Shown: in pieces, positions 31,374-44,467 of the stretch
Layout of the letters: each line of letters starts with the position of its first letter
Position numbering within the stretch: the first letter of the stretch is position 1
Sequence record: PQ821640
Direction: 5' to 3' (one strand)
DNA length: 64,000 nt
From: Escherichia phage SD2
The notes under the pieces: model-generated
Told to the model about the DNA's origin: nothing
Database searches by the model: none
The model's input: only the letters and a program-made list of their open reading frames with translations
Program-made: the position numbers and the translations under genes

Positions 31374-32363
31374 ATGGCAGCACCAAAATCATGGGAACAA
31401 TATAAAGAAGAGTGTATACCAATAGCAGAGAGTAAGCAAATCCAAATCTTAGGATGGACGGGACAATGGAAAGGGGTCCACACAAAACTTGATTTGTTGT
31501 GCCATTGTGGTTATAAATGGGATACTACAAGTATTAACAGTTTTAAATGTGGTAGCGGTTGTCCACAATGTAGGAGGAAGAATATAAGGAAGTCACAAAC
31601 AATGTCCGACGATCAACATATTGCAGATTTCTTTTCTACAGGGGAATTTAAGGAAGGCACTATCTTCACTAACACAGGAACACGGGGTAAAGGATGTAGG
31701 AATATTATCTGGATGGTTGAATGTCCTGTTTGCTCTCATGATGAATATGTTCAAGCAGGTGTTTGTGATGGTAAATTTTACTCTGAAGGAGATAACCTTA
31801 AACGAGGGTATATTCCGTGTCGTTGTGGGAACTATCGGTATACAGAAGACCAGATCACCTATAGGGTAAAAAAGGAAGTAGAAGGGAAAGGGTATGTCTG
31901 GGTAGATTGGATTACCAAACCCTCTTCTATAGGTAAGTTTAAATATCTTTGTCTTGTGCATGGTGAGCAGATAGGGAGTGCTAATAATTTATTAAGCCTC
32001 GGTCGAGGTTGTCCTATGTGTGCTGGTCATAGTCAGCAGCAGTTATATATTAATATTGTTAAGGATGATAATATTATAGTTGCTCTTAAGTTTGGTATAG
32101 CTAAAGATAGTGATAGGCGATTAAACATTCAAAATAGCCGTAATCTGTTTTTTATGGAACGTATTTGTTTATATGATTTTAGCACAGTGAAACAGTGTAA
32201 GGCTGCTGAAAGAGCTATAAAGAAAAAATTAAAAACTGGTATTTTAACAGCAAGAGAGTTGAAAGACGGTCATACAGAAACAGTAAGTGTTTCTGATTTG
32301 GAAAATCTTCAAAAAATTATTACACAATATGGTGGCAAGTTAGTATACAATAAGGAGGTGTAA
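31374..32363 (+). CDS. zinc-ribbon repeat protein with C-terminal T5orf172/GIY-YIG-like region
   Basis: 329 aa; several CxxC...CxxC pairs; C-terminal VALKFGIAKDSDRRL resembles T5orf172 motif. Confidence 0.5.
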   Translation: MAAPKSWEQYKEECIPIAESKQIQILGWTGQWKGVHTKLDLLCHCGYKWDTTSINSFKCGSGCPQCRRKNIRKSQTMSDDQHIADFFSTGEFKEGTIFTNTGTRGKGCRNIIWMVECPVCSHDEYVQAGVCDGKFYSEGDNLKRGYIPCRCGNYRYTEDQITYRVKKEVEGKGYVWVDWITKPSSIGKFKYLCLVHGEQIGSANNLLSLGRGCPMCAGHSQQQLYINIVKDDNIIVALKFGIAKDSDRRLNIQNSRNLFFMERICLYDFSTVKQCKAAERAIKKKLKTGILTARELKDGHTETVSVSDLENLQKIITQYGGKLVYNKEV

Positions 32364-32915
32364 ATGCGGATTACTGATAAGTATGTGTTCTTCTTTTCAG
32401 CAAAAGATGAATTTAGCAACTGGTATCTATCATCTTTTATTGAACCTTTAGCACCCAAGTATAATAATTCTATTACAAGTTCTGTTGAATTTACTTGTGT
32501 GGAACAATATATGATGTGGAGAAAAGCATGTTTGTTTTATGATTACAGTATTGCATCTTCTATTTTAACCGGAGATCTAAGATATACAGGAGAAAAAGAA
32601 CAAGCATATTATAAGCGACTAGGCAGATTAGTTAAAGATTATGATGAAGATACCTGGACTTCTTTACGGGAGAAGATTGTCAAACGTGGTTTGTATCTTA
32701 AATACACACAAAATGAAGATCTCAAAAATAAACTTATAACCTACGCAGATAAGGAGTTCGTAGAGGCAAGCCCTTATGATTCTATTTATGGTATCAAAAT
32801 GGGGATGTGGGATCGTGACGTGGAAAATAAGGACTGTTGGAAAGGACAAAATCTTTTAGGAAAATGGCATACAGACCTTGCTGTTTATCTAAAAGCACAA
32901 TCTGATATTTCCTGA
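32364..32915 (+). CDS. NADAR (YbiA-like) domain protein
   Basis: 183 aa; EFSNW, EQYMMWRKACLF, LGRLV, KFTQNEDLKNKLITY..EFVEAS..D..YGIKMG pattern of the NADAR/DUF1768 family. Confidence 0.7.
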   Translation: MRITDKYVFFFSAKDEFSNWYLSSFIEPLAPKYNNSITSSVEFTCVEQYMMWRKACLFYDYSIASSILTGDLRYTGEKEQAYYKRLGRLVKDYDEDTWTSLREKIVKRGLYLKYTQNEDLKNKLITYADKEFVEASPYDSIYGIKMGMWDRDVENKDCWKGQNLLGKWHTDLAVYLKAQSDIS

Positions 32916-32940
32916 TATTTTGAAAATTTTTATTTTTATA

Positions 32941-32955
32941 AAAAGGGGTGTGGGT
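32941..32955 (+). promoter_or_regulatory. AAAGGGGTGTG motif, copy 1
   Basis: Recurs at 44180 and 44259 at the borders of the cassette array. Confidence 0.3.
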
Positions 32956-33129
32956 TTCATGTACGGAAATTCACCCTCTGAATAATATATTCAGAGTAAA
33001 TATTATTTTGTACTCTGTTAATAAATTATTTAATTTGTTTGTTGGATTATGATATCTGGTTTTTAAAAGGCATACTATCTCTTAACTACTACTTATAACA
33101 GAACAGTAAAATCATTTTTATAAAAAGGA

Positions 33130-33340
33130 CAAAATTATTTAAAGTTTTTACAGATTTTTGGATACAAATTTTGAAAATGAAAAGTTCAAGTTTGGTCAAA
33201 ATTATTTAAAGTTTTTGTATGTATTTCTATCCAGATTTTGAAAATGAAAACTTCAATTTTTTAAAAATTCCCCAGTTTATTTAAAGTTTTTTTACCTTTT
33301 TCCGTAGAAAAATCAAAAATGAAAAGTTCAATTTCGTGTT
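33130..33340 (+). repeat. three tandem ~68-70 bp repeats (ATTTAAAGTTTTT ... ATTTTGAAAATGAAAAGTTCAA)
   Basis: Direct repeat units at about 33130, 33198 and 33266; each contains the inverted repeat TTGAA..TTCAA. Confidence 0.6.
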
Positions 33341-33349
33341 TTTATGGGT

Positions 33350-33470
33350 ATGCGTATGATAATCATTCTCATTTGTAAATGAGAATCATTATCATTTAAT
33401 TATGTAAATGATAAGCATTCTCACTAAGAGAATGAGAATCATTAGCAAATGAGAATTTTTCTCATTTGCA
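33350..33470. promoter_or_regulatory. cluster of at least 4 Fur-box-like palindromes
   Basis: ATGATAATCATTCTCATT, AATGAGAATCATTATCATT, AATGATAAGCATTCTC, AATGAGAATCATTAGCAAATGAGAA versus Fur consensus GATAATGATAATCATTATC. Confidence 0.45.
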
Positions 33471-33479
33471 GAATAACGC

Positions 33480-34100
33480 GCAGGGGCGGTGTTTGTCTCG
33501 CGCTCCCGTGTCCCCTCGCCATACAATAAGAATAGCATAACCAACAACAAAAGCAAGCGATTATTTTTATCTTTACATTTCTTTACAAATTTATTTTAGA
33601 CGAGCTACCGGCGATCAACCTTCCAACCAGTGCCCCTGGTATGTTAGCCCCGCCTTTACGCCGTGGGGGTGGCGCTTCCTCTTCTGTATGTAAAACAGTA
33701 TAAGCCCGATCCCTGGGCTTGTCAAGATTATTTTTTGTTTTCTTGCCAGGATAGGACACCTAACCAAAAATACATGTCGCCCCGTGCCCCTGGCGGGATC
33801 TTGCTTTCCCCGCCGCCACTGCAAGCCCATAAATAACCATTTACGAACGTATCAAAGTGATCTATCTCTTCCACCTTATGATCGCCCAGGTTGAGAACGG
33901 TTTCAACCTTTAAGCCCGTTGCGCTTGCTACCTGGTGCACCGTGCCGCCTTGCCAGCCCAATGAGTGCATGAGATGTAAAGGAGTATTTGTCATGGTATC
34001 GCCCTTTCTTTGATGTGCGCCCTGGTTGGCGCGGTAGAAAGATAATAGCCGTTTCCTTTATAGATAGCAAGCAAAAAAGAAATGAAAAAAGATTAAAAAA
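33480..34100. other. GC-rich compositional island
   Basis: Visibly higher GC than the flanking AT-rich sequence. Confidence 0.5.
33728..33994 (-). CDS. hypothetical protein encoded in the GC-rich island
   Basis: ORF track 88 aa; overlapping alternative frames present. Confidence 0.3.
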   Translation of the reverse strand: MTNTPLHLMHSLGWQGGTVHQVASATGLKVETVLNLGDHKVEEIDHFDTFVNGYLWACSGGGESKIPPGARGDMYFWLGVLSWQENKK

Positions 34101-34104
34101 ATGG

Positions 34105-34166
34105 TTGACGTTCCTCACCTGGTAGCGTAGTATTCATCTTGTCGAGGGGCGGCAATAGTGCCGCTC
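34105..34166 (+). promoter_or_regulatory. cassette 1: promoter (TTGACG-17-TAGTAT) + 5' hairpin GGGCGGCAATAGTGCCGCTC
   Basis: Sigma70-like boxes; hairpin starts ~8 nt after the -10. Confidence 0.6.
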
Positions 34167-34188
34167 ATAACAGAAGAGAGAAATAATC

Positions 34189-34461
34189 ATGGCATCATAT
34201 AGCGCATCAATGATCGTAGCTGGCATCACTGGTAAACCTATGCGCGGTGGCGGATCTTTCGCTAACATCAATATTGATGGACGTTTATCCCTGGACGCAG
34301 CGATCACAGTGGCACGGGAAACGTTTAAAAAAGAATGTAATTTCAATAAACAAGATTATCTCGGTTTCGCTATTGAAAAAACCGCGCGATTTGTGGATTA
34401 TAAAAGCCCGAAAATGATCGACACTACACTAAAAGCGCAAGATGTAGCGTTTTTGCTTTAA
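34189..34461 (+). CDS. hypothetical protein (cassette 1)
   Basis: ORF track 90 aa. Confidence 0.55.
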   Translation: MASYSASMIVAGITGKPMRGGGSFANINIDGRLSLDAAITVARETFKKECNFNKQDYLGFAIEKTARFVDYKSPKMIDTTLKAQDVAFLL

Positions 34462-42772: not shown

Positions 42773-42939
42773 AAACGTTCACCGAAAAAAGTGAATAGAT
42801 CGCGGTATCGAGCTAATCAAGGAGCAGATGAACAACCATACCATGAAGATCATAAGGCGCTTACAACGTGTTTTAGACCGCTTATTTTTAATTTCTTCAT
42901 GTAACTATCTGGCAAAAACAGCCTTTTTCTTGTCTTTCC

Positions 42940-43020
42940 TCTTAAATGATAATCATTCTTATTTATAGCTGATTATTTATGCAATAAACTGAATAATGTA
43001 ATAATGATAATCATTCTTAA
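42940..43020. promoter_or_regulatory. two Fur-box-like sites (AAATGATAATCATTCTTAT; ATAATGATAATCATTCTTAA)
   Basis: 14-16 of 16-18 positions match Fur consensus. Confidence 0.45.
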
Positions 43021-43844
43021 CTTAAGACCATCTAACCTATAAAATAATAAGTTATCTAACTAAATTAAAACTAATTATCTCACCTTTATTTATAACTTAC
43101 TGTTACTATCTCATTGATAACCTTATATTAAACAACAATAACTAATATAAATTATTACTAAGCTAAATATAATCTATCTAACCTTTAAAACTATAATTAT
43201 AATCTATCGAATTGTTGCACAAAGTAACTATTAAATTGTTAGTAACATTACTAAATAATTAATATCCTATCTATTTATGATCTAATCTTTACCTTCCTAT
43301 TTATTACCTAAATAATCATTTCATACCGTAATCATTTCATACAATAATTATAACAAGAAATATAATTAACAAGCGTATCATTAGCAGCCTATGCCGGACA
43401 CATAGGCGGCTAATAATAACGCAACTACACACCCCACATAATAACCATCACCGATAGTTATTATTTGTGCTTATGTAGCTTGCAACAACTGCAAGCGCAA
43501 CAATATACATGGTATATTGTATTCCCTTACATTGTTGCGGTGCGTTATTATTAGCTAATGTTTGGAACATTGGCTATAATATAAGCTATCCAATAATAAA
43601 CATAGTGAATAATAACCCTGATGATCATAATGCGCCACCTTCCAGGGGGCGCTATGTGAACACAAAGAAATCTTTCTTGTCAAGAAAAATATTACCATTA
43701 TTGCGCAAAATTATTTACATCTGAATAGATGGTTTTTCATACTATTGCCCCATATAGCCTATCATTTGTTGAGCCTACTTTCTTAAAAGCGCAATAAATT
43801 AGAATTATCTTGATTTTTAGGGCGTTTTATAGTATAGAAAATAT

Positions 43845-43865
43845 GCAAATGATAATCATTATCAG
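43845..43865. promoter_or_regulatory. Fur-box-like site GCAAATGATAATCATTATCAG
   Basis: 16/17 match to GATAATGATAATCATTATC. Confidence 0.5.
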
Positions 43866-44029
43866 TTATCTTCCACGGGTGGCACTATTTCACGCAGGAT
43901 CATTTCATTTGGCAAGGTGTATATAGATGTTTAGACTTGCCAAGCCATTGATTTGCTTAGAATTTATCTGTTTTGTTGTGAGTAATGCCTTTCTTGCTCA
44001 GAAAATAATCAAAAGTCTTATAAGTCATT

Positions 44030-44062
44030 GAATGATAATGCAAATGATAATAATTCTCATTG
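44030..44062. promoter_or_regulatory. Fur-box-like tandem site GAATGATAATGCAAATGATAATAATTCTCATTG
   Basis: Overlapping GATAAT hexamer repeats. Confidence 0.4.
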
Positions 44063-44179
44063 ATATTTGAGGGGGACGGTCAGCAGAAATCGGGGGGCGC
44101 TGAAAATCGCGTTAAGCACCTCTCGCAAGCGAGCAGTATTTTGCGGCAAGTTATTGATATTATTGACTTTACGCTTATG

Positions 44180-44290
44180 AAAAGGGGGTGTGTCGAAATA
44201 AATCGGGTATACCGGAAAATTTTTGTGGCATAGATATTTATTTGTCTATATTATGTACAAAGGGGTGTGTTAAAAATATTAGGTATATAT
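44180..44290 (+). promoter_or_regulatory. two copies of AAAGGGGTGTG-N-AAATA-N-T(C/T)(G/A)GGTATA motif
   Basis: 44180-44210 and 44259-44290; upstream of the 44468 operon. Confidence 0.35.
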
Positions 44291-44467
44291 AGAATAATTG
44301 ATAGGGAAATCCTATACTAAATCCTTCATTATTGCAGCGGGTGAAAGACAGAATCGAAGATGCAAATAATGCTTGCATTGGATAGAAATGTCTGTATAGT
44401 GGTTTGCATACCGCGCACGACGCGTTTCCATTTTCAATAAAATGTTAGCATTATGGGGAGGTAGAAA

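Follow-up and report, generated by a model that had tools for sequence, protein, structure and literature searches.

A conserved three-unit repeat array beside Fur-like palindromes in the non-coding region of phi92-, phAPEC8- and rV5-type myoviruses

The non-coding region and its repeat array

The stretch of DNA analysed in this study, referred to as the window, comprises 64,000 nt of Escherichia phage SD2 (PQ821640). Searches with 601 bases around the repeat array returned 58 matching phage records; in 55 of them the match spanned 80% or more of the query, and 47 had an identity of 95% or higher. The close matches all belonged to Justusliebigvirus (phi92-like, Stephanstirmvirinae), and on sequence comparison the window is that of a phi92-like phage of this genus. 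The array lies inside a 1.27-kb non-coding gap between the NADAR gene (32364–32915) and a set of small plus-strand early genes starting at 34189; the single sizeable ORF of the gap is a minus-strand ORF of 88 aa (33728–33994). Neighbouring genes encode a generic AAA ATPase, a homing endonuclease, the NADAR protein and small ORFs without known function, and T7-type replisome genes (primase/helicase and DNA polymerase) are located upstream. The non-coding region heads a long series of small early genes carrying sigma70 promoters, and those near the array were found by consensus scan to be near-consensus sigma70 promoters.

The GenBank records alia and inny label these repeats 'repeat_region', with no function assigned. 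The rV5 genome paper marks merely a 'non-coding' box, and its skew analysis gave no origin (PMC3606486). Open-access PMC articles and bioRxiv contained no description of the array beyond these 'repeat_region' features and the rV5 box (PMC3606486), and nothing specific on an origin, the transcriptome or Fur sites in these phages.

Indels in the alignments of the region did not come in multiples of three, and conservation of the small ORFs was lacking; a coding sequence as the identity of the array was supported neither by the ORF list nor by the alignments. No match to the region was found in 5,426 E. coli genomes, and the plasmid matches consisted of the Fur-operator similarity described below and one 55-nt hit on a 137-kb E. 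coli record, and nothing else. A 17-base core taken from the GC-rich block to the right of the array gave only scattered, unrelated matches in bacteria, in a number close to chance expectation. Neither this search nor that of the E. coli genomes supported a host origin of the region.

Just 5′ of the non-coding region is a slot that holds different homing-endonuclease genes in several lineages (CapR plus T5orf172, HNH or 'endonuclease'); it occupies 31374–32363 in the window, 1368–1955 in L014 and 6229–7689 in L008. On the plus strand, TGATATTT is present twice in direct orientation at an interval of 10 bp, overlapping the NADAR stop codon (32903–32920). Throughout both subfamilies considered here, Stephanstirmvirinae and Vequintavirinae, every lineage has direct repeats of the type (T)GATATTT(G), in 2–5 copies about 10–20 bp apart, where the non-coding region has its left edge; they look like a second, sequence-conserved iteron-like set. 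At 32940–32996, a GC hairpin (GGGTG...CACCC) with a minus-strand T-run, terminator-like in appearance, and a palindromic hairpin (CTCTGAATA-ATA-TATTCAGAG) were recognised by eye and in the alignment. Together the two hairpins would bound the region on the left, a call made from sequence and alignment and not scored by the consensus scan.

The earlier note had described three direct repeats with a period of about 68 bp immediately after the NADAR gene. The repeats are real, as Tandem Repeats Finder reported 33130–33260 (period 67, 82% matches, score 185) and a repeat search returned three in-register 79-nt copies at 33114, 33181 and 33256, which were 72–73% identical and spaced 67 and 75 nt apart. 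The units start at 33130, 33197 and 33272, so that the measured periods are 67 and 75 bp and the repeats are not strictly helically phased as had been supposed. The array begins 215 bp past the stop codon (32915), beyond the terminator-like hairpins, rather than directly after the gene.

Each unit consists of box A, about 19 variable nt, an A-tract box B and a short linker, the conserved cores being box A and the A-tract box B with its TAAAGTTT-like end. Box A is the exact 15-mer TTATTTAAAGTTTTT, which starts at 33135, 33202 and 33277; both strands of the 64 kb taken together have just one other match, with 2 mismatches. The 19-mer core of box B, TTGAAAATGAAAAGTTCAA, starts at 33171, 33238 and 33313 with 0, 1 and 2 mismatches, respectively; three matches compare with 0.11 expected, and none of 100 shuffles reached three. 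In unit 1 (33130–33196, plus strand), box A at 33135–33149 and box B at 33168–33192 (core 33171–33189) had conservation scores of 0.93 and 0.81, and the variable spacer between them scored 0.59. Unit 2 (33197–33271, plus strand) has box A at 33202–33216 and box B at 33235–33259 (core 33238–33256), followed by a linker with the conserved sequence AAAAATTCCCCAG. Unit 3 (33272–33340, plus strand) has box A at 33277–33291 and box B at 33310–33334 (core 33313–33331). Sensitive self-BLAST and degenerate motif scans found no second array locus in the 64 kb. Boxes A and B being unique in the window, the array is better understood as a cis site present in single copy than as a class of promoters.

A palindromic core, previously taken as the key feature of the repeats, does not hold up as such. 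The inverted repeat in the units (TTGAA-N9-TTCAA) is weak, its left arm is broken in unit 3, and it is absent from relatives such as Citrobacter phage Tr1 and Klebsiella phage KP2025. The AT content of the array is 79%, and low duplex stability puts it at the 99th percentile; the least stable DNA of the window is not the array but a segment at 43.0–43.3 kb, near the terminal repeat. Predicted curvature of the array peaks at the 99.9th percentile in this phage; it was likewise high in KP2025 but ordinary in several relatives, and intrinsic curvature was dropped as a defining property since it is not consistently high.

Tandem early promoters are known in T7 (A1–A3). On this precedent the repeats might be three tandem promoters for host sigma70 or a phage-modified RNA polymerase, and both boxes do contain TAAAGT, a weak −10-like hexamer. 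We consider this highly improbable, as the consensus scan gave one weak minus-strand match in unit 2 (TAGAAA-17-AATAAT, 9/12), no −35/−10 pair was conserved across lineages, with none at all in Vequintavirinae-type units, and the motif was missing from all other intergenic regions of the 64 kb. A sigma70 or phage promoter class was thus left without support by the consensus scan, the hexamer checks across lineages and the motif searches elsewhere in the window.

Fur-like palindromes, GC-rich block and minus-strand promoter

Five Fur-operator-like 7-1-7 palindromes of the TGAGAATCATTCTCA type occur at 33352–33470, starting at 33357, 33380, 33409, 33433 and 33450. Fur operators match GATAATGATAATCATTATC or the 7-1-7 motif TGATAATnATTATCA, usually in overlapping clusters; in the segment 33352–33464, the five 7-1-7 matches agreed at 11–13 of 14 positions and 19-mer matches at 13–16 of 19. 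This agrees with the Fur-box-like cluster noted earlier downstream of the repeats, and the palindromes at 33357–33464 are credible Fur operators. A segment of 46 bases (33356–33401) was 87% identical to the sequence just 5′ of the IucA/IucC siderophore operon of Moraxella plasmids. The resemblance to Fur-regulated iron-uptake promoters, such as that of aerobactin iucA, concerns this adjacent cluster only, through its fit to the 7-1-7 motif and the match to the siderophore-operon upstream region; the three repeats themselves bear no resemblance to Fur boxes, and the setting differs in being a non-coding region of a virulent phage with no iron gene nearby. Among the relatives, the copy number of the Fur-like palindromes ranged from 1 (SSE121 and L026) to about 9 (phiWec188). 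A different palindrome, GTGATAGTTTC, occupies the Fur position in the L032/L038/L044 lineage, and L028 has none.

To the right of the palindromes is a GC-rich non-coding block (33470–33694), which contains GAATRAC-GCAGG, CTTTACATTTCTTTACA at 33571–33587, CTACCGGCGAT and GGTGGCGCTTCCTCTTCTG. The block (approximately 210 bp) has about 55% GC, compared with 37% for the genome. It was found in 245 phage records, with 80–85% nucleotide identity even in Vequintavirinae (Mydovirus, Seunavirus and Certrevirus), and is flanked by a promoter-like element on each strand. An Rfam search with the block gave no relevant hit at E ≤ 1. RNAalifold indicated weak covariation on both strands, with 2–3 compensatory pairs in alignments of 7 and 17 sequences, and a hairpin ACCAG...CTGGT showed A-U to G-C swaps. 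Either a pair of sense and antisense RNAs or a site in DNA may account for the block.

A 37-nt core of the block, AGACGWGCTACCGGCGATCAACCTTC, was 92% conserved in distant Aeromonas phages of Plateaulakevirus. In Aeromonas phage 2L372D (L015) it lies at 2501–2537, in an intergenic position beside a TGATATT motif and without the repeat array. In the uncultivated genome L028 (IMG/VR UViG_3300026472_000003), the block is split by an insertion of about 520 bp with a minus-strand ORF, approximately 100–620 nt upstream of the TCTTTACAAA anchor; this insertion might represent a mobile endonuclease or be intron-like.

A near-consensus sigma70 promoter (TTGACA-17-TATACT) was identified on the minus strand at 33697–33725 by the consensus scan and by comparison with relatives. 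Its hexamers (TTGACA/TTGCAA-17-TATAAT-like) are kept in all lineages, and its spacer sequence varies. The promoter points leftwards through the GC block to the Fur sites and then to the array, 360–560 nt downstream, and is directed into an AT-rich region, as at transcription-primed origins.

In Escherichia phage ETEC-TG, the GC block has lost its right half through a natural deletion between two CCAGYGCCCTGG repeats (L016 365–624, corresponding to window positions of about 33630–34019), which also took out the minus-strand promoter together with the 88-aa gene and joined the minus-strand promoter of that gene to the remaining GC block. Since ETEC-TG is viable without them, these parts are dispensable for plaque formation. 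The 88-aa ORF (phrog_19316) contains a helix-turn-helix-like stretch (GGTVHQVASATGLKVETVLNL) and is placed between the minus-strand promoter of the GC block and a divergent early promoter; other lineages carry unrelated small genes (DUF7170 and others) in its place.

The orientation of this promoter, together with the terminator-like hairpin of the same strand just past the array and the lack of a conserved minus-strand ORF between the two, would suit an element acting at the RNA level, in which the repeats form three modules of a minus-strand non-coding RNA of about 750 nt, running from about 33690 to the hairpin and T-run near 32940 and serving, for example, in protein binding or as a sponge. 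This was judged quite unlikely. Stable or covarying structure is lacking in the units, their lone inverted repeat is weak and unconserved, no Rfam match was obtained at E ≤ 1, and the 130 nt from the array to the terminator are unconserved; the conserved outer spacing of the units, kept even with a degenerate middle unit (see below), is more easily explained at the DNA level.

Conservation across Stephanstirmvirinae and Vequintavirinae

Distant relatives within Stephanstirmvirinae were Citrobacter phage Tr1, Klebsiella phages KP2025, KP13-26 and phi1_175008, and the Phapecoctavirus phages Schickermooser and phiWec188. Nucleotide identity at the locus was about 70% in these phages, and the three orthologous units were kept in all of them. 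Box A spacing was 66–67 bp followed by 75–77 bp in every Stephanstirmvirinae lineage. Column conservation over seven lineages of the subfamily was 0.87–0.93 for box A and 0.75–0.82 for box B, against 0.59–0.68 for the spacers within the units and 0.53 for the 120 bp just 5′ of unit 1. Identity to the window was likewise 56–70% in the array versus 32–35% in the upstream flank. In Phapecoctavirus the middle unit is degenerate, yet units 1 and 3 remain 138 bp apart. These alignments show selection on the boxes, on the number of units and on the outer spacing.

The comparison with related phages, which had been suggested earlier as a check, extended beyond this subfamily: besides being kept across Stephanstirmvirinae, the three-unit layout was found in the Vequintavirinae phages KB57, CR9, SSE121, 4MG, AV124 and POP15 and in IMG/VR genomes, the latter having been retrieved via a motif inside the GC block. 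The same order of elements recurs in Stephanstirmvirinae, Vequintavirinae and uncultivated relatives, namely GATATTT repeats (2–5 copies), TTATCTCAAA-like motifs, the three-unit array, Fur-like palindromes, the GC block and the minus-strand promoter. We take the region to be a conserved non-coding control region common to phi92-, phAPEC8- and rV5-type myoviruses.

The sequences of the units differ by lineage. At least five unrelated-looking 5′ boxes were distinguished (TTATTTAAA, GGTTCTCGATCG, GACTTGAGRG, GGTCGTAGGA and GGTCTCGATAG), each followed by a T5–6 tract. In 13 of the 14 lineages, the first and last units are 138–145 bp apart, and this span persists where the middle unit is degenerate (L032 and Phapecoctavirus) or where the array has four short units instead of three (L028). 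Because the outer span is kept despite a degenerate or replaced middle unit, selection appears to maintain the geometry of one complex rather than three independent sites. Array type tracks phage taxonomy and not host, as both types occur in phages of Klebsiella and also in those of E. coli; the partner of the array is therefore probably phage-encoded.

Vequintavirinae-type arrays have a GATC density of 19–33 per kb, compared with 7–9 per kb in their flanks (L012, 2094–2300; L013, 2086–2270; L014, 2219–2430; also L023, L024 and L025). A Dam site lies within the conserved box of this type (TCGATCG), and the phi92-type array has no GATC.

The conservation also bears on the possibility that the repeats are a neutral tandem duplication or a packaging site (pac or terminase repeats), a reading that is largely refuted and to which we give next to no weight. 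Neutral duplication is excluded by the orthologous conservation of each unit across genera. For packaging, several GenBank records begin in or near the region, and the three R-sites of lambda cosB offer a formal analogy: cosB (R3-I1-R2-R1) and SPP1 pacL have repeated protein-binding boxes, three in number, over about 150 bp of bent DNA, as would the array if its putative binding occurs. The array, however, has no IHF site, is not beside terminase genes and is far from the terminal repeats. The record starts near it are assembly artefacts or arbitrary, that of ETEC-TG being a 111-bp assembly overlap, and the terminal repeats defined by PhageTerm map elsewhere. Justusliebigvirus BME3 has a PhageTerm-defined terminal repeat of 342 bp (PMC12210895), which maps to about 43.77–44.19 kb of the window, and the 514-bp terminal repeat of Mydovirus KPP-1 (PMC9862379) is not at the locus homologous to the array. 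A terminase recognition site (pac/cos) was rejected, the array being about 10.5 kb from the terminal repeats.

In T5, the first-step-transfer segment makes up about 8% of the genome, and a repeat-rich non-coding region forms its end. By analogy, the array could delimit DNA entry or some other DNA transaction, like the T5 injection stop, and would mark where the terminal block of small early genes (about 10.5 kb) has its inner edge. The position would fit, as the terminal repeat at about 43.8–44.2 kb is 10.5 kb from the array, or about 7% of the genome, and the intervening small early genes are transcribed towards the genome end. The parallel with T5 is purely positional, though, and we know of no two-step DNA transfer in these myoviruses; such a boundary appears very unlikely.

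Possible roles of the array in replication and transcription

Taken together, the facts point to a single-copy site at which a lineage-specific phage protein would assemble into a nucleoprotein complex. The role that we tentatively place first for it is that of a replication-origin recognition module, on account of the unique site, the co-evolving specificity, the meltable AT-rich DNA, the promoter aimed at the array and the T7-like replisome. In this proposal, the three bipartite units would be cis-acting recognition sites for a sequence-specific, phage-encoded DNA-binding factor, and the occupied units would build one nucleoprotein complex over about 140–145 bp of AT-rich, readily melted DNA, the array acting as an iteron-like module of a phage replication origin. 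Transcription from the flanking conserved promoters, chiefly the strong minus-strand one about 360–560 nt away, would activate or prime the origin, and the neighbouring Fur operators would modulate its activity. The binding of a phage protein, the formation of a higher-order complex and the role in replication initiation are all steps that we infer from sequence comparison.

Comparison with iteron origins, such as lambda ori with its four O-protein iterons and SPP1 oriL/oriR, gave both likenesses and differences. The array has clustered direct repeats of one recognition sequence at a single locus, as in iteron-type origins; these repeats are unique in the 64 kb, with boxes conserved relative to variable spacers, and lie in meltable AT-rich DNA that is predicted to be curved in this phage. 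Their specificity diverges by lineage as co-evolution of initiator and iteron predicts. In SPP1 oriL/oriR, bipartite AB boxes plus an AT-rich region are bound by G38P, and the units of the array are bipartite too. Iterons, in contrast, are repeats of 17–22 bp at about two helical turns, with a period of about 20 bp instead of 67–75 bp, and the array has three units only, the middle one of which can degenerate. The suggestion in the earlier note that the repeats are iterons or regulator-binding sites thus stands for an iterated cis-acting array, with conserved boxes, a unique motif and a geometry kept across two subfamilies, but not for classical iterons, given the bipartite units of about 70 bp; the absence of DnaA or IHF consensus sites and of an adjacent initiator gene counts against an origin.

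The search for consensus sites covered 32900–34200 and found none for DnaA or IHF, and a DnaA/IHF-type origin was rejected on this basis. No initiator (Rep/O-like) gene was found among the genes at or beside the array. The nearby AAA+ ATPase was discarded as an initiator, as it has only generic p97/FtsH-type similarity and is unrelated to the upstream gene of Vequintavirinae; the 88-aa phrog_19316 protein and DUF7170 were discarded as binders of the array, as their presence does not co-vary with array type. GC skew was also discarded as an origin marker. Its switches follow the direction of transcription, its minimum is at about 28–29 kb, where transcription changes direction, and the array is not at a switch. 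Within the plus-strand block the skew steps from about 0.21 left of the locus to about 0.08 right of it, opposite to the change that an origin would give, and gene content confounds this step.

Transcription-activated origins are used by the T7 and T4 (oriF/oriG) systems. Those of T7 (promoters 1.1A/1.1B plus an AT-rich region), T4 (the oriF/oriG middle promoter plus a DNA-unwinding element) and ColE1 (RNA II) resemble the present region in having a strong promoter, conserved here, aimed at AT-rich DNA a few hundred bp downstream; a conserved GC-rich stretch separates the two, and a T7-type primase-helicase and polymerase are present. The differences are that these origins have no repeated recognition boxes, that the promoter here is a host sigma70 promoter and that the ETEC-TG isolate lacks it.

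The adjacency to Fur operators would suit a transcriptional role equally well. In a reading that ranks close behind the origin and that we regard as possible, albeit doubtful, the array would be an operator or enhancer through which a phage regulator controls the adjacent Fur-overlapped promoter or promoters, the GC-rich non-coding transcript or the turning off or on of the neighbouring block of early genes, with no role in replication. The array lies directly 5′ of the Fur-like palindromes and the GAAT-GAC-GCAGG junction in every lineage, one Fur palindrome in Vequintavirinae overlaps a promoter-like pair (TTGAAT-18-CAGAAT), the region leads the long run of small sigma70-driven early genes, and lineage-specific operators in a fixed layout typify regulator–operator co-evolution. 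Against these observations, the array and the putative promoter are separated by about 140 to 330 bp, depending on how many Fur boxes are present, the −10-like hexamer is without its key A in the L032 lineage, and no regulator gene co-varies with the array, the 88-aa and DUF7170 neighbours not tracking its type; a wrapped geometry of 140 bp would also be unusual for a simple operator.

A broader proposal is that the entire rV5/phi92/phAPEC8 supergroup has its master control hub, or its origin, in the 1.3-kb region, with the array assembling a lineage-specific initiator or regulator and the Fur operators gating it by host iron; we consider this unlikely on present comparisons. Were it true, it would amount to an iron-gated switch of replication or early transcription in strictly virulent phages, a prospect that is just as unlikely. 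Fur sites beside the array, if true, would represent a rare case of a virulent phage sensing host iron status.

Phages of the phi92, phAPEC8 and rV5 types, which are components of therapy cocktails, rank with the broad-host-range coliphages and Klebsiella phages that are isolated most frequently. For these phages the cis element is now precisely defined as three boxes with a fixed span of about 142 bp and a lineage-specific sequence, as are its conserved partners, the Fur operators, the GC block in 245 phage records and the strong promoter in antisense orientation. Iterated binding-site arrays as such are known; what is unusual here are the long bipartite units, the fixed span, the lineage-specific sequence and the companion Fur operators. 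Should the array be an origin or a master operator, it could provide a handle for phage engineering and origin-based vectors and could account for incompatibility or specificity when related phages co-infect.

A second large AT-rich non-coding region of the window, at 42900–44450, holds the physical genome ends and the least stable DNA of the window. It contains a perfect Fur 7-1-7 site (TGATAATCATTATCA) at 43850 and weaker ones at 42947, 43005 and 44045, together with a copy of TGATATTTG at 44061 and many TATCTMA repeats. The terminal repeat of KPP-1 likewise ends in Fur-like half-sites.
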